64,000 bases of DNA from an uncultured Gemmatimonadales bacterium. GTDB lineage: Bacteria; Gemmatimonadota; Gemmatimonadetes; Gemmatimonadales; GWC2-71-9. Every line of letters starts with the position of its first letter. Positions within the stretch are counted from its first letter, which is position 1. Location: assembly GCA_963828735.1 (NCBI GenBank), contig CAWHFW010000001.1, positions 64,001-128,000 on the forward strand, in the 5' to 3' direction. Both the position numbers and the translations under genes were made by a program. Below the pieces are notes generated by a model. That model made no database searches. It saw nothing but the letters and a program-made list of their open reading frames with translations, and was not told the origin of the DNA. Of this stretch, positions 1 to 51,207 are shown one piece after another.

Positions 1-91
1 CGCGTTCGCCGGGTTGAGCCACGCGGACCTCGGATTCACGGGGCGGGTCCTGCCCGCGGCCGCGCCCGCGCCGCAGGAGGCCGCCCGATGA
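1..91 (+). CDS. nuoG: 3' end of probable NADH-quinone oxidoreductase subunit G (partial, runs off window start)
   Basis: Frame 2 reads AFAGLSHADLGFTGRVLP...AAR* with TGA 89-91 overlapping the nuoH ATG (ATGA). It sits directly upstream of nuoH. Confidence 0.55.
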   Translation, partial: AFAGLSHADLGFTGRVLPAAAPAPQEAAR

Positions 92-1308
92 CGCCGGAGA
101 TGAAGGGCTTCATCCTGCTGAGCGCGCTCAAGATGCTCCTGGTGTTCACCGTCGTCATGATCGGCGTCGCCCTCCTCACGCTGATGGAGCGCAAGGTGAG
201 CGCCTGGATGCAGAACCGCCGGGGCCCCAACCGGGTGGGCTGGGCCGGCCTGCTGCAGCCGGCCGCCGATGGTCTGAAGAACATCCTGAAGGAAGAGACC
301 TACCCGGCGCTCGCGAACCGCGGCCTCTTCTTCCTCGCGCCCGCGCTGTCGTTCATTCCCGCGCTGCTCCTGTCCGCCGTGATCCCGTTCGCGGCGCCGC
401 TGCCGCTGGACTTCGACTTCACGCTCGGACCCCTGGGTCGCTTCGTGCACCACGGTCTGATGCCGATGGTCGTGGCCGACCTCCCGATCGGCTTTCTCTT
501 CGTCCTCTCGATCAGCTCGATGGGGGTCTACGGGATCGCGCTCGCGGGCTGGTCGTCCAACAGCAAGTACGCCCTGCTCGGCGGCCTCCGGGCCAGCGCG
601 CAGATGATCAGCTACGAGATCGCGATGGGGCTGAGTCTCATCCCGGTGCTGCTCATGAGCGGCAACGTGAGCTTCGGCGCGATCATCCACGAGCAGCAGA
701 TCGGTCTCTGGTACGTGCTGCCGCTCTTCCTTTCGTTCTTCGTGTTCCTGATCTCGGGCTTCGCCGAGACCAACCGGCTGCCGTTCGACCTGCCCGAAGC
801 CGAATCCGAGCTGATCGCCGGGTACCACACCGAATACAGCGCGATGAAGTTCTCGTTCTTCTTCATCGCCGAGTACGCCAACGTGGTGACCGTGTGCGCC
901 ATGGTGACCACTCTGTTCTTCGGCGGCTGGGACATCCCCGGGCGCTGGGACGAACAGGGCGGCCTGCTCCAGACGCTGGCCACGGGCGGGTTCTTCTTCC
1001 TCAAGCTCATGTTCTGGATCTTCTTCGTCATGTGGATCCGTTGGACCCTGCCGCGGTTCCGCTATGACCAGCTCATGGCGCTGGGCTGGAAGGTGCTCAT
1101 GCCGCTCGCGCTGGCCTACATCATGGTCATCTGCACGGCGATCTACGGCATCGAGCACGTGGCCGGCATCACCGATCCGAAGGCGCGCTCGCTCGCGCTG
1201 TTCGGAGTGAACGTGGTGCTCGGGCTCTTCGTGTTCGGAGTGCTCGACAGCGGCGTCTTCATCCGCGGCTCCGGCCGGCGGCAGGCCACTTACGAGGTGA
1301 CGGGCTGA
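88..1308 (+). CDS. nuoH: NADH-quinone oxidoreductase subunit H
   Basis: ERKVSAWMQNRRGPNRVG, QPAADGLK, ETNRLPFDLPEAESEL and WTLPRFRYDQLM motifs. GGAGG RBS upstream. Confidence 0.97.
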   Translation: MTPEMKGFILLSALKMLLVFTVVMIGVALLTLMERKVSAWMQNRRGPNRVGWAGLLQPAADGLKNILKEETYPALANRGLFFLAPALSFIPALLLSAVIPFAAPLPLDFDFTLGPLGRFVHHGLMPMVVADLPIGFLFVLSISSMGVYGIALAGWSSNSKYALLGGLRASAQMISYEIAMGLSLIPVLLMSGNVSFGAIIHEQQIGLWYVLPLFLSFFVFLISGFAETNRLPFDLPEAESELIAGYHTEYSAMKFSFFFIAEYANVVTVCAMVTTLFFGGWDIPGRWDEQGGLLQTLATGGFFFLKLMFWIFFVMWIRWTLPRFRYDQLMALGWKVLMPLALAYIMVICTAIYGIEHVAGITDPKARSLALFGVNVVLGLFVFGVLDSGVFIRGSGRRQATYEVTG

Positions 1309-1814
1309 TGGCCATCGGCGTCAAGGTCATGAAGCGTCCCGAGCGCGAGGTCAGCTACGTGCGGGCCACGCTCAAGGGCATGGCGCTCACCTTCAAGCAC
1401 ATGTTCGAGCCGAAGGTGACGATGCAGTACCCCGAGGAGAAGAGCACCACCGATTGGAGCATCTCGCAGCGATGGCGCGGCACCCACCGGATGCTGACCG
1501 ACGAGCAGGGCCGCTCCAAGTGCGTCGCGTGCGGGCTCTGTCCCCAGATCTGTCCGGCCAACTGCATCAAGCTGGTGCCCGGCGAGGACGAAGAGGGGAA
1601 CCGGTACCCGCTGATCTACGAGATCGACGAGTTCCGCTGCGTCTTCTGCGGGTACTGCCAGGAAGTGTGCCCCGAGGAGGCCATTCACGTGGGCGTGCAC
1701 TTCGAGAATGCCGAGTACACCCGCGGCCGGTTCGTGTACGACCTGGAGCGGCTCCAGGCGCAGACCCATGCCGTGTCCACGCTGTGGGACCCGACCGATC
1801 CACGGGGCGAGTAG
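1308..1814 (+). CDS. nuoI: NADH-quinone oxidoreductase subunit I (2x[4Fe-4S])
   Basis: VTMQYPEE, CVACGLCPQICP and CVFCGYCQEVCP ferredoxin motifs. Confidence 0.97.
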   Translation: MAIGVKVMKRPEREVSYVRATLKGMALTFKHMFEPKVTMQYPEEKSTTDWSISQRWRGTHRMLTDEQGRSKCVACGLCPQICPANCIKLVPGEDEEGNRYPLIYEIDEFRCVFCGYCQEVCPEEAIHVGVHFENAEYTRGRFVYDLERLQAQTHAVSTLWDPTDPRGE

Positions 1815-2372
1815 ATGACCCAGTTCGTGTTCTACCTGTTCGCCTTCGCCGCGGTGCTCGGCGCGGCGATGTGCATCCTCCAGCGGAACGCGGTGGTGTC
1901 GGCCATCTGGCTGATGAGCACGATGTTCTCGCTCGCGGCCATCTTCGTCCTGCTCGGCGCCGAGCTGATCGGGATCCTCCAGATCCTGGTCTACGTCGGC
2001 GCCATCCTCGTGGTCTTTCTGTTCGTCATCATGCTTCTCAACCTGACCCACGCGACGTCCGACATGCGCGGCCCGGGGGCGCTCGGCGCCACGGTGGTCA
2101 TCGTCGGGCTCCTCGTGGTCGAGCTCGCCGCGCTCTGGCGCTACACGCCGCAGCGGCTCGCGGCCGACATCGCGCAGGCGCCGATGCTGGCCAATCCCGC
2201 GAGCGTGTTCGCCGCTGGTGAGGTGACGCGGCAGGAGACCGCGGCGCGCGGGGTCGTGGGCGCCCTGGCCGCGCCCCTGTTCCAGGTCTATCTGGTGCCG
2301 TTCGAGATCACATCGATCCTCCTCCTCGCCGCCATCGTCGGCGCGGTGGTGCTGGCCAAGCGGAGGATCTGA
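1815..2372 (+). CDS. nuoJ: NADH-quinone oxidoreductase subunit J
   Basis: [21 protein letters not shown] and [19 protein letters not shown] motifs. Confidence 0.95.
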
Positions 2373-2680
2373 TGCCCCCCACCACGTTCCTCGGCCCGTC
2401 GCTCGGGCTCTCGGCCATCCTGTTCAGCCTGGGCGTGGCCGGCGTGCTGCTCCGCCGGAACGCGATCGTGGTGTTCATGTGCGTCGAGATCATGCTCAAC
2501 GCGGTCAATCTCGCGTTCGTCGCGCTGGCCCAGCTGCACGGCGCGAGCGGCTACATCATGGTGCTCTTCGTCATGACCGTCGCGGCGGCGGAGGCGGCGG
2601 TCGGCCTGGCGATTATCCTCGCGGTCTTCCGGCACAAGCAGTCGGTGGATCTCCAGAACATCAACCTGCTGCGGGGCTGA
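2372..2680 (+). CDS. nuoK: NADH-quinone oxidoreductase subunit K
   Basis: [20 protein letters not shown] and [12 protein letters not shown] motifs. Confidence 0.96.
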
Positions 2681-4653
2681 TGACCTTCACCCACGTGGTC
2701 TGGCTCGCCGTCGCGCTTCCCGTCGCGGGGTTCCTGCTGAATGGGGCGCTCTCCCTGTGGCGCCCTCAAGCCAAGGGCGCGGTCTCCGTCATCGGACCGG
2801 GCGTCCTCCTCGCCGCCTTCGCTGTCGGGCTCGGCGTCTTCCTCGAGCTCTGGCGGGAGCCGCCCCACGCCCCGATCATCGTTCGCCTCTGGTCGTGGCT
2901 GCCGGTGGATCGGCTGCAGGTGGATCTGGCCTTCCAGGTGGACCAGCTCTCGGTGGTGATGCTGCTCATCGTCACCGGCGTCGGGAGCCTGATCCACCTG
3001 TTCAGCGTCGGCTACATGCGGGAAGATCCGGGATACGCGCGCTACTTCGCGTACCTGAACCTCTTCATCGTGTTCATGCTGGTGCTGGTGCTCGGGTCGA
3101 GCTTCCCGGTGATGTTCATCGGCTGGGAAGGCGTGGGTCTCTGCTCCTACCTGCTGATCGGGTTCTGGTTCTCGGAGAAGGCCAACGCCGACGCCGGCAA
3201 GAAGGCGTTCATCATGAACCGGATCGGCGACTTCGGGTTCCTGGTGGCGATGTTCTTCCTCTGGCGCGTCTTCGGGAGCCTCGACTTCACCTACGTGACC
3301 GAGCACGCCCCCGACATGCTGACGCCGGGCGGCGCCGTCGTCACGGCGATCACCCTGTTCCTGTTCCTCGGCTGCACGGGCAAGTCCGCGCAGATCCCGC
3401 TCTACACCTGGCTGCCCGACGCCATGGCCGGCCCGACGCCGGTGTCGGCGCTGATCCACGCGGCCACGATGGTGACGGCCGGCGTCTACCTGGTGGCGCG
3501 GACCAACGTGCTGTTCGCGCTCGCGCCGGTGTCCAGCACGGTGGTGGCTGGCATCGGGGCCCTGACGGCGCTTTTCGCCGCGACAATCGGTCTCCGGCAG
3601 TACGACATCAAGAAGGTGCTCGCCTACTCCACGGTCTCGCAGCTCGGCTACATGTTCATCGGCGTCGGGACCGGGGCCTACGCCTCGGGCATCTTCCACC
3701 TGACCACCCACGCCTTCTTCAAGGCGCTCCTGTTCCTCGGCTCGGGCAGCGTGATCCACGCGATGCACCATGCGTATCACGCCACCCACTCGCACGAGGA
3801 CGCGCAGGACATGCGGAACATGGGCGGGCTCCGGCGCTACATGCCGGTCACCTTCTGGCTCATGATGATCGCCACCCTGGCGATCGCCGGGATCCCGCCG
3901 TTCTCCGGGTTCTTCTCCAAGGACGAGATCCTCGCGGCGGCCTTCGCCCGCGGGGCGGATACGCCCATCTACTACGTGTTCTACGGGATGGGCGTCCTCG
4001 CGGCCCTCCTCACCGCGTTCTACATGGCGCGCCTGATGGCCATGACCTTCCTCGGGGAGAACCGCACCGGCGAGCGCGAGCGCGGCCACCTGCACGAGGC
4101 GCCCTGGATCATGACGGGACCGCTGCTCGTGCTCGGTGTGCTGAGCGCGGTGGGCGGGGCGCTCAACCTGCCTCACCTCGTCGGTGGGCACTCGGCACTC
4201 GAGCGCTGGCTCGAGCCGGTGATGGAGCCCGGCCTCCGGCTCACCCACCTGGTCATGCCGTCCGGCTCGACCGAGCTGGCCCTGGTCGGCGCCGCGGTGG
4301 CGATCGGCGCGTTGGGCCTCTGGCTGGGCTTCCGGGCCACGCTCGCCGGCTCCATCCCGCCCGCGCACGACGCGCCGGAGGAGACGGGCTTCGCCCTGGT
4401 GCTCAACCGCAAGTACTACGTCGACGAGCTGTACGACGCCCTGGTGGTGCGGCCGGTCGCCTGGCTGTCGCGCGTGGTGCTGTGGCGCGGGGTGGACCAG
4501 CAGATTGTCGACGGCGCAGGAGTGAACGGCGCGGCGTTCCTCTCCCGACTGGCGGGCAGCGGGCTCCGGCTGCTGCAGACCGGTCAGGTGGGGGTCTACG
4601 TGGTGCTCTTCCTCGTGGGCGCGCTGTGGATCCTGCGCGCCGTGATCAGGTAA
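2680..4653 (+). CDS. nuoL: NADH-quinone oxidoreductase subunit L
   Basis: True start is the ATG at 2680 (TGATG overlap with nuoK). GWEGVGLCSYLLIGFW, GKSAQIPLYTWLPDAMAGPTPVSALIHAATMV and HAFFKALLFL motifs. Confidence 0.97.
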   Translation: MTFTHVVWLAVALPVAGFLLNGALSLWRPQAKGAVSVIGPGVLLAAFAVGLGVFLELWREPPHAPIIVRLWSWLPVDRLQVDLAFQVDQLSVVMLLIVTGVGSLIHLFSVGYMREDPGYARYFAYLNLFIVFMLVLVLGSSFPVMFIGWEGVGLCSYLLIGFWFSEKANADAGKKAFIMNRIGDFGFLVAMFFLWRVFGSLDFTYVTEHAPDMLTPGGAVVTAITLFLFLGCTGKSAQIPLYTWLPDAMAGPTPVSALIHAATMVTAGVYLVARTNVLFALAPVSSTVVAGIGALTALFAATIGLRQYDIKKVLAYSTVSQLGYMFIGVGTGAYASGIFHLTTHAFFKALLFLGSGSVIHAMHHAYHATHSHEDAQDMRNMGGLRRYMPVTFWLMMIATLAIAGIPPFSGFFSKDEILAAAFARGADTPIYYVFYGMGVLAALLTAFYMARLMAMTFLGENRTGERERGHLHEAPWIMTGPLLVLGVLSAVGGALNLPHLVGGHSALERWLEPVMEPGLRLTHLVMPSGSTELALVGAAVAIGALGLWLGFRATLAGSIPPAHDAPEETGFALVLNRKYYVDELYDALVVRPVAWLSRVVLWRGVDQQIVDGAGVNGAAFLSRLAGSGLRLLQTGQVGVYVVLFLVGALWILRAVIR

Positions 4654-6233
4654 TGACGATGGCCGCTTTCCTCCAGTCCATCGGGTACGGCGAGTGGATC
4701 CTCCACGCGCTGGTCCTGCTCCCGCTCATCGGCGTCGTTCCGGTGCTGCTGGGCAGCGAGCGGTCGGCGAAGGTCACGGCGCTGGTGATCACCGTCCTCG
4801 AGTTCGTCCTCTCGGCCGGACTCTGGTGGGGGCTCGAGCGCGGCCGCGGGACGTTCCAGCTGATGGCCAACCTGGACTGGATTCCCTCCTGGGGCATCTC
4901 GTACCGCGTCGGCATCGACGGGATCTCGCTCGTCATGGTGCTGCTCACCACCGCGCTCATGCCGCTCAGCGTGCTCGCGAGCTGGCAGTACATCACGACG
5001 CGCGAGCGCGGCTTCTACGCCCTCATGCTCACGTTGCTCACCGGGATGGTCGGCGTGTTCCTCGCGCTCGACATGTTCCTGTTCTACGTGTTCTTCGAGA
5101 TCATGCTCATCCCGATGTATTTCATCATCGGGATCTGGGGCGGGACCAACCGGCTGTACGCGGCGATCAAGTTCTTCGTCTACACCATGGCCGGGTCGCT
5201 GCTCATGCTGGTGGCCATCGTGGTGCTGGTGTGGAAGGTCCGGAGCGGCACGGGGCTGCTCTCGTTCTCGTACGACTTTCTGCTCCAGAACGCGTCGGCG
5301 GCCGGCGGGGCCGCGCCCTGGCTCTTCGCCGCGTTCGCGCTCGCGTTCGCCATCAAGGTGCCGATCTTCCCGTTTCACACCTGGCTGCCGGACGCCCACG
5401 TCGAGGCGCCCACGGCGGGCAGCGTCCTCCTGGCCGGCGTCATGCTGAAGATCGGCACCTACGGCTTCCTGCGGTTCGCCGTCCCGTTCTTCCCGCAGGT
5501 GGCCTTGAGCCCCGTGGTGAGCCACATCATGGTCGTGCTGGCGGTGATCGGCATTATCTACGGCGCGCTGGTCGCGATGGTGCAGCCCGACATCAAGAAG
5601 CTGGTGGCCTACTCGTCCGTGAGCCACCTGGGCTTCGTGATGCTGGGCATCTGGGGCATGACGCTCCAGAGCGTTCAGGGCGCCCTGATGGTGATGATCA
5701 GCCACGGCTTCTCCACCGGGGCGCTGTTCCTCCTGATCGGCATGCTGTACGAGCGCCGCCACACCAGGCGCATCGAGGACTACGGCGGCATCGCCCGGGT
5801 GGTGCCGGTCTTCTCGCTGATTCTCACCGTCGTGGCGCTCTCGTCCATCGGTCTTCCGGGGCTCAACGGCTTCATCGGCGAGTTCCTCGTCCTGCTCGGC
5901 AGCTTCACCGCGTTCCCGTGGGCGACCGGGCTCGCGACCACGGGCGTGATCTTCGCCGCGGCCTACCTCCTGTGGGCCCTTCAGCGGGTCATCTTCAACC
6001 GCCTCGACGACCGCGAGAACGAGCACCTGCACGATCTCACCCCCAGGGAGCTCGCCGTCATGCTCCCGCTCGTCGTCGGCATCGTGTGGCTCGGCCTCTA
6101 TCCCAAGCCGGTCCTCGAGCGCATGGAGCCCTCCTCGAAGCGGTTCCTCGAGGCCGCCGCGCCGGGTGTCGGGCCGACGACGGCCGGGGCCGCGCTCCGG
6201 TCGAGCGCGCAATTGTCGGAGGGCGGCCGATGA
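4653..6233 (+). CDS. nuoM: NADH-quinone oxidoreductase subunit M
   Basis: Start ATG 4653 (TAATG overlap) or 4659. GIDGISL, FAIKVPIFPFHTWLPDAHVEAPT and KKLVAYSSVSHLG motifs. Confidence 0.97.
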   Translation: MTMAAFLQSIGYGEWILHALVLLPLIGVVPVLLGSERSAKVTALVITVLEFVLSAGLWWGLERGRGTFQLMANLDWIPSWGISYRVGIDGISLVMVLLTTALMPLSVLASWQYITTRERGFYALMLTLLTGMVGVFLALDMFLFYVFFEIMLIPMYFIIGIWGGTNRLYAAIKFFVYTMAGSLLMLVAIVVLVWKVRSGTGLLSFSYDFLLQNASAAGGAAPWLFAAFALAFAIKVPIFPFHTWLPDAHVEAPTAGSVLLAGVMLKIGTYGFLRFAVPFFPQVALSPVVSHIMVVLAVIGIIYGALVAMVQPDIKKLVAYSSVSHLGFVMLGIWGMTLQSVQGALMVMISHGFSTGALFLLIGMLYERRHTRRIEDYGGIARVVPVFSLILTVVALSSIGLPGLNGFIGEFLVLLGSFTAFPWATGLATTGVIFAAAYLLWALQRVIFNRLDDRENEHLHDLTPRELAVMLPLVVGIVWLGLYPKPVLERMEPSSKRFLEAAAPGVGPTTAGAALRSSAQLSEGGR

Positions 6234-7732
6234 ACCGCATCGACCTCGGCACTCCGTGGGGCGTGACCCTCGCGCTGCTGCCGGAGATCGTCCTGTCCGG
6301 CTGGGCCCTCGTGGTTCTCCTGGTCGTGAGCTGGCGTCATCACGGGGCGGCGGACAGTCGCCTCGCGGGCTGGCTCAGCTTCGCGGGCGTCGTGCTCAGC
6401 TTCGCCGCGCTCGCATCCCTCTGGGTGAGCGGCGCCACGCCCGACGGCCTGGCCCAGATGGTGGCGCTCGATTCGTTCCGCTACGGCGTGGCCGCCATCG
6501 CGCTGCTCAGCGCGGGCGCCACGATTCTCCTCTCGCTGGGGTACCTCGAGCGGGAGCGGCTGCTGGCGCCGGAGTACTACCCGCTCGTGCTGTTCGCGAC
6601 CGCCGGCATGATGTTCCTCGGCGGGGCGGAGGACCTCATCGTCCTGTTTCTCGGGCTCGAGGTCATGTCGGTCGCGGTCTACGTGCTCGCCGGCTTCAAC
6701 CGGGCGAACGCGTTCTCGGCCGAAGCGGCGCTCAAGTATTTCCTGATCGGGGCGTTCGCGTCGGGTTTCCTGCTCTACGGCATCGCGCTGGTCTATGGCG
6801 CCACCGGCACCACCAATCTCTCGCTGGCGGGGGCGCAGCTCGGGGGCAAGCCGCTCAGCCTGATGGCGTCGCTCGGGCTCGGGCTTCTGATCATCGGGTT
6901 CGCCTTCAAGGTGGCGGCCGTACCGTTCCACATGTGGGCGCCGGACGTGTACGATGGCTCGCCGACGCCCGTCACCGGCTTCATGGCCACCGGCGTCAAG
7001 GCGGCCGCGTTCGCCGCGCTCGTGCGCGTGCTGATGGAGGCGTTCCCCTCGGCCATCGCGACCTGGCAGCCGATCGTCGCCGGCCTCGCGATCGCATCGA
7101 TGGTGCTGGGCAACCTGGTGGCGCTGGCGCAACGTCCACTCAAGCGGATGCTGGCCTACAGCTCGGTCGCGCACGCGGGTTATCTGCTCGTGGCGGCCTG
7201 GCCGGGCACGGCGGTCGGCGCCGGCTCGGTGATGCTGTACCTCTTGGCCTACAGCCTGACGTCCCTCGCGACGTTCGGTCTCCTCGCCGCGCTCGGCCGC
7301 GGGGGCGAGCGCGAGGTCGGTCTCGACGATATCGCCGGTCTCGCGTCCGCGCGTCCGTGGATGGCCTTCGCCCTCACCGTCTGCATGCTCTCGTTGCTCG
7401 GGTTTCCGGGGACGTTCGGCTTCATCGGCAAGTGGTACATCATCTCCGCCGTGGTGGCCGAAGGCCACTATCTGCTCCCGGTTATCCTGGTGCTCACCAG
7501 CGTCGTGAGCGCGGGCTACTATCTGCCGGTGATCATGGCGATGTACATGAAGCCCGCACCCGCCGGGGACCGGTACGCGGGCCTTCGCCTCGCGCCGGCC
7601 GCGTTCGGGGCCATCACGCTCACGGTCGCCGCGGTGCTGCTCTTCGGGTTCTGGCCAGGGGCCGTGCTCGACCTGGCCGGGCAGACCGGAACGACGCTCA
7701 CGCAAACGGGCGTGCCGATCGCCGGACCGTGA
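6230..7732 (+). CDS. nuoN: NADH-quinone oxidoreductase subunit N
   Basis: ATGA overlap with nuoM. EAALKYFLIGA, FKVAAVPFHMWAPDVYDGSPTP and KRMLAYSSVAHAGY motifs. Confidence 0.97.
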   Translation: MNRIDLGTPWGVTLALLPEIVLSGWALVVLLVVSWRHHGAADSRLAGWLSFAGVVLSFAALASLWVSGATPDGLAQMVALDSFRYGVAAIALLSAGATILLSLGYLERERLLAPEYYPLVLFATAGMMFLGGAEDLIVLFLGLEVMSVAVYVLAGFNRANAFSAEAALKYFLIGAFASGFLLYGIALVYGATGTTNLSLAGAQLGGKPLSLMASLGLGLLIIGFAFKVAAVPFHMWAPDVYDGSPTPVTGFMATGVKAAAFAALVRVLMEAFPSAIATWQPIVAGLAIASMVLGNLVALAQRPLKRMLAYSSVAHAGYLLVAAWPGTAVGAGSVMLYLLAYSLTSLATFGLLAALGRGGEREVGLDDIAGLASARPWMAFALTVCMLSLLGFPGTFGFIGKWYIISAVVAEGHYLLPVILVLTSVVSAGYYLPVIMAMYMKPAPAGDRYAGLRLAPAAFGAITLTVAAVLLFGFWPGAVLDLAGQTGTTLTQTGVPIAGP

Positions 7733-7760
7733 GGGCGCCGAGGCGGGCACACGTGGCGCC

Positions 7761-9131
7761 ATGAACGCCCCGAAATCCATCTTCCGCCAGTACGACATCC
7801 GCGGCCTCGTCGGCTCGGAGCTCACGCCCGAATTCGCCCGCGGTTTGGGGCGCGCCTTCGCGTCGGTGGCGTGGGAGCGGCTCGGCCGAGCGCCCACTCT
7901 CGTCGTCGGTCGGGACAACCGCCCATCGGGCGAGGCGCTCGCGGCCGGGGTCAGGCGGGGGATCGTCGAGGCGGGCGCCACCGCGGTGGATGTCGGCACG
8001 CTCCCGACGCCGGCCCTGTATTTCGGCGTCGCCGCCCTCGGCTCCGATGGCGGCATCCAGGTCACCGGCTCGCACAATCCCCCCGAGTTCAACGGCTTCA
8101 AGATGGTCCTCGGCGGCGAGGCGTTTCACGGCGATGAGATCCTGGGCCTCTGGGAGATCATCGTGACGGAGCGCTGGCGGAGCGCCACCGGGCGCGAGAC
8201 GAGCGACGGCTCGGTCCTCGGGCGGTATCGCGAGGGCATCGTCTCCCGCCACCGGTTGGCGCGCCCCGTCCGCGTCGTGGCCGACTGCGGGAACGGGGCC
8301 GGCAGCCTCGTCGCCGTCTCGACCCTCGAGGCCCTCGGCGCCGAGGTCACGCCGCTCTTCTGCGAGTCGGACGGCACCTTTCCCAATCATCATCCCGATC
8401 CGACCGTGCCGGAGAATCTCCGCGATCTCCAGGCCGAGGTGCGGCGCACGGGCGCCGAGCTGGGCATCGCCTTCGACGGCGACGCGGACCGGATCGGCGC
8501 GGTGGACGAGACCGGCCGCATCATCTACGGCGATCAGCTCCTCGTCATCCTCGGCCGCGATGCGGTCGCCCGGTTCGGCGCCGGCACGCCGGTCATCTTC
8601 GATGTCAAGTGCTCGGAGGTGCTCCCGGCCGCCCTGACGCGCGCCGGGGCGCGACCCATCATGTGGAAGACCGGGCATTCGCTCATCAAGGCGAAGATGA
8701 AGGCGGAGGGCGCGCCGCTCGCCGGCGAGATGAGCGGCCACATGTTCTTCGGCGGAGACTACCTTGGGTTCGACGACGCGCTGTTCGCGGCCGCGCGCCT
8801 GCTCGAGATCGTGAGTCGCCGGCCCTTCGGTCTCGCGGCCCTGCTCGAGGACCTGCCGCGCACGACCGCCACGCCCGAGATCCGGGTCGATGTGCCCGAG
8901 GAGCGGAAGTTCGATCTCGTGCAGCGGGCCGTGGCGCACTTCTCGTCGCGGTACCCCGTCAACACCATCGACGGCGCGCGGATCACCTTCCCGAACGGCT
9001 GGGGGCTGCTCCGCGCGTCGAACACCCAGTCGATTCTCGTGCTCAGGTTCGAGGCCACGGATCAGGAGTCGCTGGACGCCGCCCGCCGCGAGGTCGCCGA
9101 CTGGCTCGCGGGGCAGGGCGTGCGGGCGTAG
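7761..9131 (+). CDS. Phosphomannomutase/phosphoglucomutase (AlgC-like alpha-D-phosphohexomutase)
   Basis: IFRQYDIRG, TGSHNP (phospho-Ser), FDGDADR (metal binding), GEMSGH and RASNTQ motifs. Confidence 0.93.
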   Translation: MNAPKSIFRQYDIRGLVGSELTPEFARGLGRAFASVAWERLGRAPTLVVGRDNRPSGEALAAGVRRGIVEAGATAVDVGTLPTPALYFGVAALGSDGGIQVTGSHNPPEFNGFKMVLGGEAFHGDEILGLWEIIVTERWRSATGRETSDGSVLGRYREGIVSRHRLARPVRVVADCGNGAGSLVAVSTLEALGAEVTPLFCESDGTFPNHHPDPTVPENLRDLQAEVRRTGAELGIAFDGDADRIGAVDETGRIIYGDQLLVILGRDAVARFGAGTPVIFDVKCSEVLPAALTRAGARPIMWKTGHSLIKAKMKAEGAPLAGEMSGHMFFGGDYLGFDDALFAAARLLEIVSRRPFGLAALLEDLPRTTATPEIRVDVPEERKFDLVQRAVAHFSSRYPVNTIDGARITFPNGWGLLRASNTQSILVLRFEATDQESLDAARREVADWLAGQGVRA

Positions 9132-11646: not shown

Positions 11647-12588
11647 GTGAAGACGGCGGTCGTGGCCCTGGGCGGCAACGCGTTGGCGCGCGCCGATGTC
11701 CCCGCCACGGTGACGAACCAGTTCCGGCACGCGCGCGAGAGCATGGCGATGGTCGTCGAGCTGGCCAGGGCCGGCTGGCGCATCGTGCTGGTCCATGGCA
11801 ACGGCCCGCAGGTGGGCGACGAGCTGGTCCGGAACGAGATCGCGGGGCGCCTGATCGAACCGCTGCCCCTCGGTGTGCTGGTCGCGGAGACGGCCGGGTG
11901 GATCGGCTACATGCTGCAGCAGTCCCTGCAGAACGCGCTCGCCACCGCGCGGGTGGACCGCGACGTGGCTACCGTCGTGACGCAGACGCTGGTGGACCGC
12001 TACGATCCGGCGCTCGGCCGCCCCACCAAACCGATCGGGCGCTCGCTGACCGAGCCGGAGGTGGCGCGCCTTCGCGAGGCGGGGCGATCGGTCGGTCGCG
12101 ACGGCGCTGGCGACTGGCGGCGGATGACCACGAGTCCGAGGCCGCTGGGGATCGTCGAGCTGGGCGTGGTGCGGCACTTGGTGGAGCGGGGAACCATCGT
12201 GATCGCGGCGGGTGGCGGTGGCGCCCCGGTCTACGAGGATCCGCTGCTCGGCCTCGAGGGGGTGGACGCGGTCGTGGACAAGGATCGCGTCGCCGGCATT
12301 CTCGCCGCGCAGCTCGGGGCCGACGTGTTGATGATCCTGACGAACGTGGACGCCGTGTTCGAGGGGTGGGGCACGCCCGCGGCTCGACCGATCCGACGGA
12401 TGAGCGTTGCCCGCGCGGTCGAGCTCGTGGCATCCGGCGGGCTGGACGAAGGCGGCATGAAGCCGAAGGTCGAGGCGGCGACGGAGTTCGCGCGCTCGAC
12501 CGGTGGGCGCGCCATCATCGCGCGATTGAGTGACGGCCCCGCGGCGCTTCGCGGCGAGACCGGAACGACCATCACGAGGGAACCGTGA
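11647..12588 (+). CDS. arcC: Carbamate kinase
   Basis: VVALGGNAL, HGNGPQVG, PTKPIG, GVDAVVDKD, ILTNVDAV and GGMKPKVEAA motifs. GTG start. Confidence 0.92.
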   Translation: MKTAVVALGGNALARADVPATVTNQFRHARESMAMVVELARAGWRIVLVHGNGPQVGDELVRNEIAGRLIEPLPLGVLVAETAGWIGYMLQQSLQNALATARVDRDVATVVTQTLVDRYDPALGRPTKPIGRSLTEPEVARLREAGRSVGRDGAGDWRRMTTSPRPLGIVELGVVRHLVERGTIVIAAGGGGAPVYEDPLLGLEGVDAVVDKDRVAGILAAQLGADVLMILTNVDAVFEGWGTPAARPIRRMSVARAVELVASGGLDEGGMKPKVEAATEFARSTGGRAIIARLSDGPAALRGETGTTITREP

Positions 12589-13724
12589 ACCTGCACGAGT
12601 ACCAGGCCCGCGCGCTGCTCAAGGCGGCCGGCATTCCGATGTTCGAGGGCGACGTCGCCTCGACGCCCACTGAGGCCGAGGCCATCGCCCGGCGCATCGG
12701 CGGCACCGTCGTCATCAAGGCGCAGGTGCACGCGGGGGGTCGCGGCAAGGCCGGCGGCGTGAAGCTCGCGCGTAATCCCGCTGAGGCGGCGGACGAGGCG
12801 GCCCAGATCCTTGGCATGACGATCAAGGGGCTCACCGTCCACAAGGTGCTGGTCGTCCCGGCGGCCGAGATCGCGACCGAGAGCTACGTGGGCCTCATCA
12901 TGGACCGCGAGACGCAGCGGCCCGTGTTCATGGTGAGCTCCGCCGGCGGCGTCGACATCGAAGAGGTCGCGGCCAAGACGCCCGAGAAGATCGTCAGGCT
13001 CGCCGTGGATCCCACGTACGGCCTCTTCCCGCACCAGGCGCTCCGGCTCGCCTTCGTGCTCTACCGCGATTTCGCGCAGGTCAAGGCCGCTGCGAAGATC
13101 ATGGAGCAGCTTTACTCGGCGTTTGTCGACAACGGCGCGTCGATCGCGGAAATCAATCCGCTGGTGACCACGCCGGACGGACGGGTGCTGGCCCTCGACG
13201 CCAAGGTCGTCATCGACGACAACGAGCTGTTCTGGCGCCCGGACCTCGGCGTCCTCCGCGACGACTCCGCCGAGGAGCCGAGCGAGGCCGCCGCGCGGCG
13301 CGCGAACCTGTCCTTCATCAAGCTCGACGGCAACGTCGGCTGCGTGGTGAACGGCGCCGGCCTGGCGATGGCCACGATGGATCTGGTCAAGTACTACGGC
13401 GGGGAGCCGGCCAATTTCCTCGACATCGGCGGCAGCTCGAGCCCCGAGAAGGTCATCAACGCGCTCAAGATCATCACCGCCGATTCCCACGTGAAGGCGA
13501 TCCTCTTCAACATCTTCGGGGGAATCACCCGGACCGACGACGTCGCCAACGGCATCGTCGCGGCCACCAGCCAGTTCAAGGTGAACGTGCCCATCGTCAT
13601 CCGGCTCACCGGCACCAACGAGGTCGAGGCGATTCGCATCCTCGAGGGCGTCGGCATGCGCGCGCTGAGCGACATGGATCAGGCGGTCCAGCAGGTGGTC
13701 GAGCTGGCGCGGGGGGCCGCATGA
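12585..13724 (+). CDS. sucC: Succinyl-CoA synthetase beta subunit
   Basis: [38 protein letters not shown] and ANFLDIGG motifs. Confidence 0.97.
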
Positions 13725-14593
13725 GCATTTTCGTCGACGCCAAGACGCGCCTCGTGGTCCAGGGCATCACCGGCCGGGAGGGCTCGTTTCACGCTCGCCA
13801 GATGCTGGAGTACGGCACTGCGCTCGTAGCCGGCGTGACGCCCGGGAAGGGTGGCCAGACCTTCGAGGGAAAGGTCCCGGTGTTCAACACCGTGGACGAG
13901 GCGGTCCGCGCTACGGGCGCCAACACCTCGGTCATCTACGTGCCGCCGATGGGCGCCGCCGCGGCGGTCGTCGAGGCGGCGGATGTGGGGCTCCCGCTCA
14001 TCGTGTGCATCACCGAGGGAATTCCGGTGATGCACATGAGCCGAGCCATGCCCTTCGTGCGGAGCCGCGGCGTGCGGCTCATCGGGCCCAACTGCCCCGG
14101 ACTCATCGCGCCCGGCGTCCGGGCCAAGGTCGGTATCATCCCGGGCAACATCTGCACGCCGGGTCGCGTGGGAATGGTCTCCCGCAGCGGGACGCTCACC
14201 TACGAGGTGGTCAACCACCTCACCCGCGCCGGCATCGGCCAGAGCACCTGCGTCGGCATCGGCGGCGATCCGATCATCGGCACGAACTTCATCGACTGTC
14301 TGCAGGCGTTCCAGGCCGATCCCGACACGGACGCGATCGTGATGATCGGCGAGATCGGAGGCACCGACGAGCAGAACGCCGCTGCCTTCGTCAAGGAGCA
14401 CGTCACCAAGCCGGTCGTGGGCTTTATCGCCGGACAGACCGCGCCCAAGGGCCGCCGGATGGGCCACGCGGGCGCGATCATTTCGGGCTCGTCCGGAACC
14501 GCCGAGGAGAAGCTCGCCGCGTTCGAGGCGGCCGGCATCGGGATCATGCGGCGGCCCGTTGACGTGGTGGAGCAGCTCCGGTCGAGGATGTGA
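13721..14593 (+). CDS. sucD: Succinyl-CoA synthetase alpha subunit
   Basis: [32 protein letters not shown] and RMGHAGA (phospho-His) motifs. Confidence 0.97.
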
Positions 14594-15492
14594 GGCTCGC
14601 CGACCTTCTCAGTCCGGTACGGGTGGTGGTGCCGCTCCCGGCCGCCACGCTCGAGGAGGGACTGCGGGTGCTGGTGGCCGCCTGCGTGGCCGACGGGCGG
14701 GTGGCGGACCAGCCCGGCCTCGAGGAGGCGATCCGGGAGAGCTGGCCCGAGGATACGGTGAGCCTGGGCCCGCACGCGTGGCTGCCGCACTTCCGGACCG
14801 ACGCCGTGCGGGGGCTCGTGGTGGCCCTGGGAATCGCCGACGCCCCGATCGTCGCGGGCGGGCGCGAGCCGGCCGGGGCGGTCCGCGGGGCCGAGCCGAG
14901 GATGATCCTGCTCATCGTGGCGTCTCCGCGGGACACGGCGGCCTATCTCCAGACCGTGGCGGCGTTCGCCCACGCGCTCGCGCGGACCGAAGTGGCGGAG
15001 GCGCTGCTCGCATCCCGCTCGAGCGCCGAGGTGCTGGCGCTGCCGGCATTGCGGGACCAGGAGCTCGAGGGCCAGCTCCGCGTCCGCGACGTCATGCGCT
15101 CGGAGATCGTGGCGCTCCGGCCGGATGAGACCCTGGAGGCCGCGACCCGGCGGCTGGAGCGATTGGGCGCGGACGCGTTGCCGGTGGTCGGCGACGGCGG
15201 CCAAGTGGTCGGCATGCTGTCGTACCGCGAGCTGTTGCGTCACCTCGCGCCCGCCTATGTGCAGCGCGTGACCGGAGCCGCCGCCGCGAGCCCGCCGGAT
15301 CCACGCTCGGTGCTGGTGCGCGACGCGATGGCGCGGAGCGTGTTCTGCGTGTCGGAGGACCAGACGGTGGCCGACGTCGCGCATCTCCTGACCAGCCGGG
15401 ACGTCGAACGGGTGCCGGTCGTTGCCGATGGTGTGTTGCGGGGCTTCCTGAGCCGCGCTGATCTCGTTCGGCGGCTGCTCGGCAGCCGCTAA
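14590..15492 (+). CDS. PTS EIIA(Fru/Ntr)-like domain fused to a CBS-domain pair
   Basis: N-terminal MRLADLLSP...EAIRE...[14 protein letters not shown]...ALG...LIV resembles PTS_EIIA_2 with its His retained. C-terminal VRDVM...LPVV..VGML / VRDAM...[14 protein letters not shown] is two CBS repeats. Confidence 0.75.
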
Positions 15493-15513: not shown

Positions 15514-15945
15514 GTGGCCGGATCGCTGACGCTGGGAATCGTGAAGCCGGATGCCATCGAGACGGGCAAGACGGGGCACATCCTGGCACACCTGCAGGAG
15601 GCGGGCTTCACGCTCCGCGCTGCGCGCCTGGTCCGCCTGAGCCGGGCGGAGGCCGGGGCCTTTTACGCCGTTCATAGCGAGCGCCCCTTCTACGCCGATC
15701 TCGTCGCCTTCATGACCAGCGGGCCGTGCCTTCCCATGGCCCTCGAGCGGTCGGACGCCGTGGCGAACCTCCGGGAGGTCATCGGCGCGACCGACCCTGC
15801 CGAGGCGGCCGCCGGCACGATTCGAAAGCTGTACGCCGAGTCGAAGGGACGGAACGCGATTCACGCGTCGGACAGCGACGAAAACGCTCGCCGCGAGGTG
15901 GCGTTCTTCTTTCCCGAGGCCGAGCTCGCGGGGCTATGGGGCTGA
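15514..15945 (+). CDS. ndk: Nucleoside diphosphate kinase
   Basis: TLGIVKPDA, FYAVHSERPF, FMTSGP, GATDP, GTIR and NAIHASDS motifs. GGAGG RBS, GTG start. Confidence 0.96.
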   Translation: MAGSLTLGIVKPDAIETGKTGHILAHLQEAGFTLRAARLVRLSRAEAGAFYAVHSERPFYADLVAFMTSGPCLPMALERSDAVANLREVIGATDPAEAAAGTIRKLYAESKGRNAIHASDSDENARREVAFFFPEAELAGLWG

Positions 15946-48551: not shown

Positions 48552-49711
48552 GCGCGCCCGAGTGGGTCGCCGCGCTCGGGGACCGGGACCCGTCGGTGGC
48601 CATCGCGCTGGCGGCCATCACCCGGGCGGCCGGCCCGAACGACGTCGCGGGGTTCGGCGACCTCGTCATGAGCTATCGCGAGGCGCACCTCGCCTGCTAC
48701 CAGGGGACCGCGAACCCGCCGGCGCAGGAGATCAGCGGCGACGCGGTGCGCGACCACCTCCGGAAATCGGTCCTGCCCCGGCTCAGCGTCGAAGGCTGGC
48801 TGCTCGACACGTCGGCCAGTGACTGGGAGCCCGTGCAGCCGCGCGTGGCCTGGTGGGGCGTCGGCGGGGAGGACCGCCAGGCCATCTACGGCGCGCTGCT
48901 CGCAGCCGCGCGTCGCGCCGCGCAGCGCTCCAAGCCGCAGGCGCCACAGCGCGCCTCGACGAGCGTGCTCGAGGGCACGCGCCTGGTGAAGACCTTCAAG
49001 GATCGCCGGGTCGTCAACGAGGTGAGCGTCAAGGTGGAGCAGGGGGAGATCGTGGGCCTCCTGGGGCCCAACGGGGCGGGAAAGACCACGACCTTCTACC
49101 TTATAACGGGGTTGATCCGGCCCGACTCGGGCCAGGTGAAGCTCGACGGGCTCGATCTCACCCGTTCTCCGATGTACGAGCGGGCGCGCTCGGGCATCGG
49201 ATATCTGGCGCAGGAACCGTCGATCTTTCGAAAAATGACGGTCGAGGAAAATATTCTCGCGATCCTCGAGACGCGCCGGTTGGGACGGGACGAGCGTCAG
49301 CGCCAGCTGGACCGCATGCTCGACGAGCTGTCCATCAAGCACCTGCGGCGGAGCCGGGCGTACAGCCTGAGCGGCGGCGAGCGCCGTCGGCTCGAGATCA
49401 CCAGGGCCCTCGTCACCGAGCCCAAGTTCATGCTGCTCGACGAGCCCTTCGCGGGCGTCGATCCGATCGCGGTGCACGACATCCAGACCATCGTCGCCGG
49501 ACTCCGCCATCGGGGCATCGGCGTCCTGATCACTGACCACAACGTCGAGCAAACGCTCGACATCGTCGACCGGGCATACATCATGTTCGAAGGAAAAGTG
49601 CAGGCCGCCGGGAAGGTGAGTGACCTCGTGTACGATGACCGGGTGGCGCAGCTCTATCTGGGCCCCACCCTCACCGCGCGTCTGCGCGCCCGCCTGGAGT
49701 CGGTGGCATGA
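48548..49711 (+). CDS. lptB: LPS export ABC ATPase LptB with ~138-aa N-terminal extension
   Basis: GLLGPNGAGKTTTFY, GIGYLAQEPSIFRKMTVEENI, LSGGERRRLEI, LDEPFAGVDPIAV, ITDHNV and YLG motifs. Confidence 0.92.
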   Translation: MSAPEWVAALGDRDPSVAIALAAITRAAGPNDVAGFGDLVMSYREAHLACYQGTANPPAQEISGDAVRDHLRKSVLPRLSVEGWLLDTSASDWEPVQPRVAWWGVGGEDRQAIYGALLAAARRAAQRSKPQAPQRASTSVLEGTRLVKTFKDRRVVNEVSVKVEQGEIVGLLGPNGAGKTTTFYLITGLIRPDSGQVKLDGLDLTRSPMYERARSGIGYLAQEPSIFRKMTVEENILAILETRRLGRDERQRQLDRMLDELSIKHLRRSRAYSLSGGERRRLEITRALVTEPKFMLLDEPFAGVDPIAVHDIQTIVAGLRHRGIGVLITDHNVEQTLDIVDRAYIMFEGKVQAAGKVSDLVYDDRVAQLYLGPTLTARLRARLESVA

Positions 49712-51207
49712 GAACAGGTCTCTCCCAGCATACCAGCATGCGCCAGGAGCTGCGGGTCAATCCGCGGCTCTACCAGGCCATGGACATGCTCTACATGCCC
49801 ATGATGGATCTGCAGCAGCACCTGAAGCAGGAGCTGCTGGCCAACCCGTTTCTGGAGCTGCTGGAGCCGGAAGACGAAGCCCCCGAGCAGAAGGACGCCG
49901 AGCAGGAGAAGGAGCAGAAGGAGAAGGAAGAGGAGATGGATTGGGAGGAGATCCTGCTCAACGGTTTCGAGGTGGGAGGGACGCGCGAGCAGTACGAGCA
50001 GCTCGAGTACACCGAGCCGGTCACCGTCGAGACCAAGGACCTGATCGACTACCTGCGTGAGCAGCTTCAGATGATGACCCTGACGCCGCGACAGCTGCTG
50101 CTCGCGGAGGAGTTCCTGGGCAACATCAACGAGGAAGGCTACCTCGCCGCGTCGCTCGAAGAGATCCTGGGCAGCGTCAACCAGCTCGTGGCGGGCCACG
50201 TCGCGACCGAGGCAGCCGAGGACGATGCCGAGGCCTCGGAGCCCGAGCCCGAGTCCGCGACGGGGCCGGATGCCTCCGCGGCCTACTACACGATGGCCGA
50301 GGCCGAGGAGATGCTGGCCGTCATCCAGCGGCTCGATCCCCCGGGCATCGGGGCGCGGGACCTGCGGGAGTGCCTGTTGATTCAGCTCGGCGAGCAGGCG
50401 GACACCGAGTCGCTCACCTACCGGCTGGTGCACGACGCGTTCCCGGACCTCATCGCCCACCGGTGGAACGATCTCGCCAAGCGGTTCGGCGTCGAGCCCG
50501 CGGCGGTCCAGTCGGCCGCGGACGAGCTGGCCCGCCTGGACCCCAAGCCCGGGCTCAAGCACGCGAGCCAGAGCGACGGCTACATCATCCCGGATCTCAT
50601 CGTCGAGAAGATCGGCGGCCGCTACCAGGTGTTCCTCAACGACACCGGCATGCCGCGGCTCCGGCTGAGCCGCTCGTATCAGGAGATCGCGCGCGACAAG
50701 AAGAAGATGACGCCGGAGAACCGCGAGTTCATCGCGTCCAAGATGAACAGCGCGAACTGGATGATTCAGGCGATCGAGCAGCGCCGCCAGACGATGCTGA
50801 AGGTCATGAACTTCATCGTGGACCGCCAGCGGGAGTTCTTCGAGAAAGGCATCGAGTTCCTCCGCCCGCTCACGCTGCGGGAGGTGGCGGAGGTGATCAA
50901 CATGCACGAATCCACGGTCAGCCGGGTGACCAACGAGAAGTACGTGCAGACGCCGCGGGGCGTGCTGCCCCTCAAGTTCTTCTTCTCGAGCGCGCTGGCC
51001 ACCGCTTCCGGCGAGGACGCGAGCGCGCGCTCCATCCGGGCCAAGCTGCAGAAGATGGTCGGCGAGGAGGACAGCGGGAAACCGCTCACGGATCAGCAGA
51101 TCGTGCACCTGTTCCAGGAACAGGGAATCCAGATCGCCCGGCGCACGGTCGCCAAGTACCGAGATCAGCTCGGGATCCTGCCGGCGCGGATGCGGAAGCG
51201 GGTATGA
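49708..51207 (+). CDS. rpoN: RNA polymerase sigma-54 factor
   Basis: NPFLE, GIGARDLRECL, LRPLTLREVA, HESTVSRVT and RpoN box ARRTVAKYR. Confidence 0.97.
   Translation: MRTGLSQHTSMRQELRVNPRLYQAMDMLYMPMMDLQQHLKQELLANPFLELLEPEDEAPEQKDAEQEKEQKEKEEEMDWEEILLNGFEVGGTREQYEQLEYTEPVTVETKDLIDYLREQLQMMTLTPRQLLLAEEFLGNINEEGYLAASLEEILGSVNQLVAGHVATEAAEDDAEASEPEPESATGPDASAAYYTMAEAEEMLAVIQRLDPPGIGARDLRECLLIQLGEQADTESLTYRLVHDAFPDLIAHRWNDLAKRFGVEPAAVQSAADELARLDPKPGLKHASQSDGYIIPDLIVEKIGGRYQVFLNDTGMPRLRLSRSYQEIARDKKKMTPENREFIASKMNSANWMIQAIEQRRQTMLKVMNFIVDRQREFFEKGIEFLRPLTLREVAEVINMHESTVSRVTNEKYVQTPRGVLPLKFFFSSALATASGEDASARSIRAKLQKMVGEEDSGKPLTDQQIVHLFQEQGIQIARRTVAKYRDQLGILPARMRKRV

Follow-up and report, generated by a model that had tools for sequence, protein, structure and literature searches.

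The gene spanning positions 14590..15492 on the forward strand of the window (the whole stretch of 64,000 nucleotides analysed in this work) is a real, uncharacterised gene coding for a putative nucleotide-sensing regulator of 300 amino acids, in which an EIIA(Fru/Ntr)-fold domain is fused to a pair of CBS domains. We tentatively suggest, with a probability of roughly 45%, that this EIIA-CBS protein is a CBS adaptor which binds an adenine nucleotide, carries an optional EIIA domain and works by attaching to another protein, plausibly SucCD or Ndk. The protein would be a soluble accessory regulator with the CBS pair as its working core; this pair would bind an adenine nucleotide (possibly AMP, ADP, ATP or a dinucleotide such as c-di-AMP), and the nucleotide would change its shape, presumably within a Bateman-module dimer. 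The protein would then act on its partner through binding and not through phosphate transfer, with SucCD and Ndk, encoded in the same operon, as the most plausible candidates, and the control would presumably run from the EIIA-CBS protein to the enzyme. It would probably descend from EIIA(Ntr)-CBS proteins encoded beside ion transporters in other phyla, the EIIA domain having eroded in Gemmatimonadota into an optional module for docking or for a second input. The idea, put forward in the first-pass annotation, that the protein may sense adenylates and regulate SCS or Ndk is plausible; of that interpretation as a whole, the EIIA fold, the CBS pair and the linkage to sucD and ndk stood, and the phospho-His relay from SucD and Ndk did not.

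The architecture of the protein emerges from Pfam matches, from its homologues and from an AlphaFold2 model (pLDDT 94.4, alignment of 104 rows). The N-terminal domain (residues 1-157; 14590..15060, forward strand) is matched by PF00359 (PTS_EIIA_2) over residues 7-150 with 34 bits against a cut-off of 27, and in the fold search the model of residues 1-157 resembled the EIIA structures 3oxp (Z 17.4, rmsd 2.4, 145 aligned) and 1a6j (Z 17.2, rmsd 2.1, 146 aligned) and the EIIA-Ntr 4gqx (Z 17.4, rmsd 2.3, 150 aligned). The C-terminal half (residues about 160-300; 15067..15489, forward strand) is a CBS pair, or Bateman module, with a helical insert; it is matched twice by PF00571 (91.9 bits) and resembles other CBS pairs at Z about 18. 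The fusion of a PTS EIIA domain, bearing a His in the AWLPHFR motif, with a CBS pair was therefore read correctly at first pass, and this His is residue 67. With the fruA model, which represents the sugar PTS IIA proteins, the sequence reaches 19 bits against a cut-off of 103.5. Homologues numbered 344 at E<=0.001 among the 8000 candidates scored, those bearing a name being Gemmatimonadales, and the Atlas clusters containing homologues point to Gemmatimonadota; no relative was found among viral contigs. The architecture is already auto-annotated in databases, and no study of this fusion was found among the papers listed in searches of the open-access literature.

The CBS pair is the part of the protein that is never missing from intact copies, and, besides its two PF00571 matches, it harbors the nucleotide-site motif Ser288-Arg289-Asp291. 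In CBS domains the G-h-h-T/S-x-x-D motif binds ribose; the G-h-h-T/S-R-x-D motif of CBS2 keeps its Gly in 90/90, its Arg in 85/90 and its Asp in 66/90 orthologues, and the Asp/Glu of CBS1 is kept in 79/90. Met247, Arg249, Val251, Cys253, Pro276, Gly285, Arg289 and Arg294 are conserved at 90-100% in the same 90 orthologues, and Asp291 at 73%. The stretch including Met247, Arg249, Val251 and Cys253 is specific to Gemmatimonadota and missing in relatives from other phyla. Cys253 (window 15346-15348) is kept in 87 of the 90 orthologues and missing from most of those relatives. The mean identity among 81 orthologues is 34% for EIIA, 39% for CBS1 and 52% for CBS2, whereas among 50 relatives from other phyla it is 31% for CBS2 and 35% for EIIA, which argues for a new constraint on CBS2 in Gemmatimonadota. 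As for the ligand, a diadenylate cyclase is encoded in the genome, so that c-di-AMP can exist. What speaks against a CBS core is that one family, f7, often lacks the Asp of CBS2 as well.

The EIIA domain of the Gemmatimonadota proteins appears to be eroded, optional and lost in several lineages. In the EIIA site a catalytic role is played by the Arg-Glu pair located 16 residues before the His, by a Thr and by an Ala (no paper on the role of the Arg was found in the open-access literature). The protein of the window keeps only the PH-x-R half of this site (Pro66-His67 and Arg69), the positions of the Arg-Glu pair, the Thr and the Ala being occupied by Ser51-Trp52, Val57 and Trp64, respectively. 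Among 81 two-domain orthologues, including one row of family f7 with a doubtful start, the His is kept in 66 of the 67 sequences outside f7 and in none of the 14 within it (a second alignment of f7, read by eye, gave 0/26 rows, 14 of them new), and Arg69 is kept in 65/81. The Pro-His pair occurs in 38/81 orthologues against 50/50 relatives from other phyla, and the Arg-Glu pair in 0/81 against 50/50 relatives and both canonical EIIA proteins of the genome; Thr is not among the four commonest residues at position 57, and a Phe or Trp occupies the position of the canonical Ala, three residues before the His, in 51/81. Moreover, in 14 of the 111 orthologue loci examined (families f4, f6 and f7) the slot between sucD and ndk is occupied by a CBS-only protein; nine of these loci, placed on the SucD tree, need four changes, three of which are forced by well-supported branches. 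No intact EIIA-only gene was seen in the slot among the 111 loci. Hence, the retention of CBS-only forms, the constraint on CBS2 and its motif, the missing Arg-Glu pair and the fixed position of the gene lead us to favor an adaptor with a CBS core. Pure decay of the EIIA domain is nevertheless doubtful, given the retention of His67 outside f7 and of Arg69, and these two residues may take part in phosphorylation or bind a ligand. In a subgroup of f7 (L062-L066, L146, L154, L319-L332) the N-domain is so divergent that Pfam no longer recognizes it, and it has gained a conserved stretch of its own, W-x-x-W-G-L-x-R-P-x-V-N-L-F, which suggests that its function is new. For an f7 orthologue without the His the model reached a pLDDT of 88, and the 50 fold-search rows shown for it were all CBS pairs.

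An adaptor working by binding would have precedents in DarB, a CBS-only protein that controls Rel via nucleotide-dependent binding (passages of PMC7900238), and in PtsN (EIIA-Ntr), which acts by binding the antiporter YcgO (PMC11808508). A complex prediction including EIIA-CBS, SucD and Ndk, each entered as an alignment, run as one job without SucC, gave a score of 0.00 versus a mark of 0.32, and it speaks neither for nor against binding.

The candidate partners SucCD and Ndk are products of the flanking genes. The EIIA-CBS gene is preceded by sucC (12585..13724; PF08442, PF00549) and sucD (13721..14593; PF02629, PF00549), coding for the beta and alpha subunits of succinyl-CoA synthetase, and followed by the nucleoside diphosphate kinase gene ndk (15514..15945; PF00334, 162 bits), all on the forward strand. 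The motifs RMGHAGA of SucD and NAIHAS of Ndk, pointed out in the first reading, are present in the translations, and Pfam confirms both enzymes. Its other details of the locus hold too: the GTG start of the gene shares GTGA with the TGA stop of sucD, which indicates translational coupling, and 21 nucleotides separate its stop from the start of ndk. Four-base overlaps likewise join sucC to sucD and sucC to the gene upstream of it, so that coupling of this kind is usual here. No internal promoter was found, terminator-like sites are at chance level, and no EIIB or EIIC is linked to the EIIA-CBS gene, the immediate neighbors being sucD and ndk. The gene that overlaps sucC (11647..12588, forward strand; PF00696) is carbamate-kinase-like and presumably an arcC; arginine deiminase pathway genes are absent beside it. 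We used this patchy passenger of the suc block as a control: it occurs in 139 of 301 Gemmatimonadota genomes and, in the genus of the window, in 18/18 genomes against 4/18 for the EIIA-CBS gene. The latter figures rule out a functional tie between the two.

The distribution of the gene across the phylum was assessed with a profile of the EIIA-CBS family (E<=1e-30) in these 301 sampled genomes, one of which (G157) is unpublished. The gene was found in 150 of them, and the 4/18 refers to the other genomes of its own genus; in two families the same search gave 0/16. The 111 orthologue loci are the best matches, picked by score and for spread over families, and they show a fixed linkage: sucD precedes the gene in 111/111 and ndk comes next in 110, the sole exception stopping at a contig edge. 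We also inspected the region around ndk in 60 genomes selected because they gave no strong match; sucD lies within 160 bases of ndk, with no EIIA-CBS gene, in 54, three have a longer sucD-ndk gap without a CBS gene, in one there is no sucD within 1.5 kb, and two hold a divergent copy. On a FastTree SucD tree of 148 loci the presence and absence of the gene require 22 changes, at least seven of which are forced by well-supported branches, and a relocated copy was never found. The fixed position, the patchy presence and the repeated changes on the tree show an old gene that has been passed on at the same site and lost many times; it is dispensable, about half of the sampled Gemmatimonadota keeping it. 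In one locus (L334, genome G092) an internally deleted remnant between sucD and ndk shows loss in progress. In another (L139), integron-integrase-like and nitrilase-like ORFs (labels by eye) stand just upstream of ndk, in the usual place of sucD.

These data bear directly on the alternative that the protein is a nucleotide-sensing regulator of a target encoded elsewhere (an ion transporter, Rel or another enzyme), simply riding in a conserved housekeeping operon. Indeed, the sucC-sucD-ndk-yceD-plsX block is conserved across the phylum and stands without the EIIA-CBS gene too, and the arcC-like passenger, equally fixed and patchy, behaves in the same way; hence, the position may be a matter of inheritance, reflecting ancestry and co-expression and not a partner, which weighs against a partner within the operon. 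The genomic context of the relatives in other phyla points in the same direction. A relative with an intact site retrieved 254 proteins, with Zixibacteria, Planctomycetota and Fusobacteriota among the source names; the Arg, Glu, Pro, His and Arg of the site are invariant in the 50 relatives chosen, a set biased by having been taken from lists retrieved with a canonical-site query. In the 80 genome loci kept from 329 matches, nearly all Zixibacteria-like, a Na/Ca exchanger lies within 1.5 kb downstream in 52 (26 have other genes and 2 are cut). In the best-scoring 24 of 80 metagenome loci, mostly full-length, a CitMHS/ArsB permease is directly downstream in 18, the others having a Na/Ca exchanger (2), another gene (2) or a cut locus (2). 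No sucC, sucD or ndk was found near the relatives in these 104 loci. This context fits the binding of PtsN to YcgO and the control of transporters by CBS domains (passages of PMC10710835). However, with the queries used, neither transporter family was found in the genome of the window or in 16 of the 27 sampled carriers, and none is adjacent to the EIIA-CBS gene; the gene was never found relocated, and the Gemmatimonadota-specific stretch of CBS2 suggests a new partner. We thus consider a target outside the operon possible, although on the unlikely side. An obligatory partnership with CaCA or CitMHS/ArsB transporters is ruled out, these being present in only 11/27 carriers and in 3/13 non-carriers.

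Common descent of the Gemmatimonadota proteins and the transporter-linked ones is likely. The profile of the relatives aligns end to end with the Gemmatimonadota family (299 columns, probability 100), and the CBS cross-scores between the two groups are only modestly above background; with the CBS profile of the relatives, 78.4 bits are reached by an unrelated CBS protein encoded in the genome, against 77.9 for the EIIA-CBS protein. A quick tree of EIIA domains, in which two rows labeled as stand-alone are fragments of the EIIA-CBS family, leaves a single origin unsupported. A nuo operon lies shortly upstream of the Gemmatimonadota gene (window 88-7764) and of the Zixibacteria-like relatives (L159-L238; L258, L262), a nuo subunit cluster occurring in 73/80 and DUF502 in 76/80 relative loci; this common placement is possibly the trace of a shared ancestral position. 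EIIA(Ntr)-CBS genes with a canonical site stand directly before CitMHS/ArsB permeases (frequently with two or three copies where the locus is Fusobacterium-like) or Na/Ca exchangers in L240-L261 and L159-L238. These proteins look like better candidates than the window gene for a transporter switch responding to both the PTS and nucleotides.

A further alternative is that His67 is phosphorylated by EI and HPr, so that the protein would integrate the PEP/pyruvate and the adenylate state as an EIIA-Ntr-like sensor with a built-in nucleotide switch; this is compatible with the CBS-adaptor reading, as a second input. EI and HPr are encoded in the genome, and the His is almost always kept outside f7. 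HPr is present in 282/301 genomes, and 18 of the 19 genomes in which it is missing are members of f7, where the His has been lost; the 8 HPr-less genomes that carry the gene all have His-less or CBS-only forms, none having the His, which leans towards HPr as the donor, if there is any donor at all. Nevertheless, most His-less f7 genomes retain HPr, and the association comes from one lineage, with no independent cases. The remainder of the phosphorylation site is also unfavorable: the Arg-Glu pair is missing throughout, the Thr is uncommon, and a bulky Phe or Trp mostly stands at the canonical Ala. In addition, two stand-alone EIIA proteins, both with a complete canonical site, are already encoded in the genome. 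We are accordingly inclined to regard phosphorylation by the PTS as rather unlikely. On another contig, hpf, hprK, a mannose-class EIIA, HPr and EI cluster with metK and ahcY (G000:C2:170400-176100; labels partly by eye).

The same inventory settles the argument drawn in the first-pass annotation from rpoN. This gene (49708-51207) is indeed without a ptsN neighbor, being directly followed by a glycosyltransferase-like ORF (label by eye), but the observation carries no weight, since the two canonical EIIA genes, HPr and EI are encoded elsewhere. The EIIA-CBS gene belongs to the suc operon, at a distance of 34 kb from rpoN, and the two canonical EIIA genes rule it out as the displaced ptsN of rpoN.

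Direct phosphorylation of His67 by SucD or Ndk, in a PTS-independent energy-charge phosphorelay, is very improbable: it could draw on the fixed slot between two phospho-His enzymes (111/111 after sucD), on the His kept outside f7, on the loss of the HPr-side residues, which could mean another donor, and on SixA, which reaches and dephosphorylates the phospho-His of Ndk (passages of PMC12934123), but in the same passages this phospho-His is apparently inaccessible without rearrangement, about half of the genomes are without the gene, and those relatives whose His site is best preserved sit away from sucD and ndk. In addition, orthologues without the His (kept in 0/14 of f7) and orthologues missing the domain (14/111) persist beside intact SucD and Ndk sites (148/148 loci for the His motif of SucD; 59/59 rows, f7 included, for His117 of Ndk), so that such a relay cannot be the conserved function. 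The first-pass annotation had itself named what would count against its interpretation, namely the lack of an EIIA fold, a His not conserved in orthologues or the lack of linkage to sucD and ndk elsewhere; the fold is adopted (Z 17.2-17.4) and the linkage holds, and the conservation of the His partly fails.

The CBS-adaptor reading has a more ambitious version, in which a transporter regulator has been rewired in Gemmatimonadota into a direct, two-input controller of SucCD or Ndk, the CBS pair reading the adenylate charge and the His site receiving phosphate from HPr or from SucD/Ndk. We judge it improbable; if true, substrate-level phosphorylation in bacteria would be under an AMPK-gamma-like switch and, in the boldest form, phospho-His enzymes of metabolism would feed a PTS domain. 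To our knowledge, no protein dedicated to regulating succinyl-CoA synthetase has been described in bacteria, and the regulation of Ndk has been demonstrated only recently, through SixA (passages of PMC12934123). Control of SucCD or Ndk by the EIIA-CBS protein would thus give a widespread and poorly studied phylum an additional point of control that responds to nucleotides; if the protein is a passenger of the operon, it would be one more uncharacterised CBS protein. In either case, the natural series running from the full site beside transporters to the eroded, His-less, CBS-only and deleted forms represents a test set for EIIA functions beyond that of a phosphocarrier.

As for the known systems, the EIIA-CBS protein shares with EIIA-Ntr (PtsN) the fold, the His with the following Arg and a stand-alone regulatory use without EIIB/EIIC; it differs in having lost the Arg-Glu pair, the Thr and often the Pro, in the fused CBS pair, in not being located at rpoN and in an EIIA domain that is dispensable in several lineages. 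With the transporter-linked EIIA(Ntr)-CBS proteins, for which no characterisation was found in the literature searched, it shares architecture, length and the helical insert in the CBS pair, whereas those proteins keep the full site and are followed by a CaCA exchanger or a CitMHS/ArsB permease instead of ndk. The CBS pair fold is also that of DarB/CbpB (YkuL, 1yav), AcuB (9s4v series) and CBSX1/2, at Z 15-18, and AcuB acts on the product of an operon neighbor; compared with DarB/CbpB, the protein has an extra EIIA domain and falls far below the CbpB cut-off (NCBIfam NF041630, 24.2 bits versus 125). Judging from sequence features, the EIIA-CBS protein thus belongs to neither PtsN nor CbpB, yet it resembles the known CBS and EIIA-Ntr regulators.
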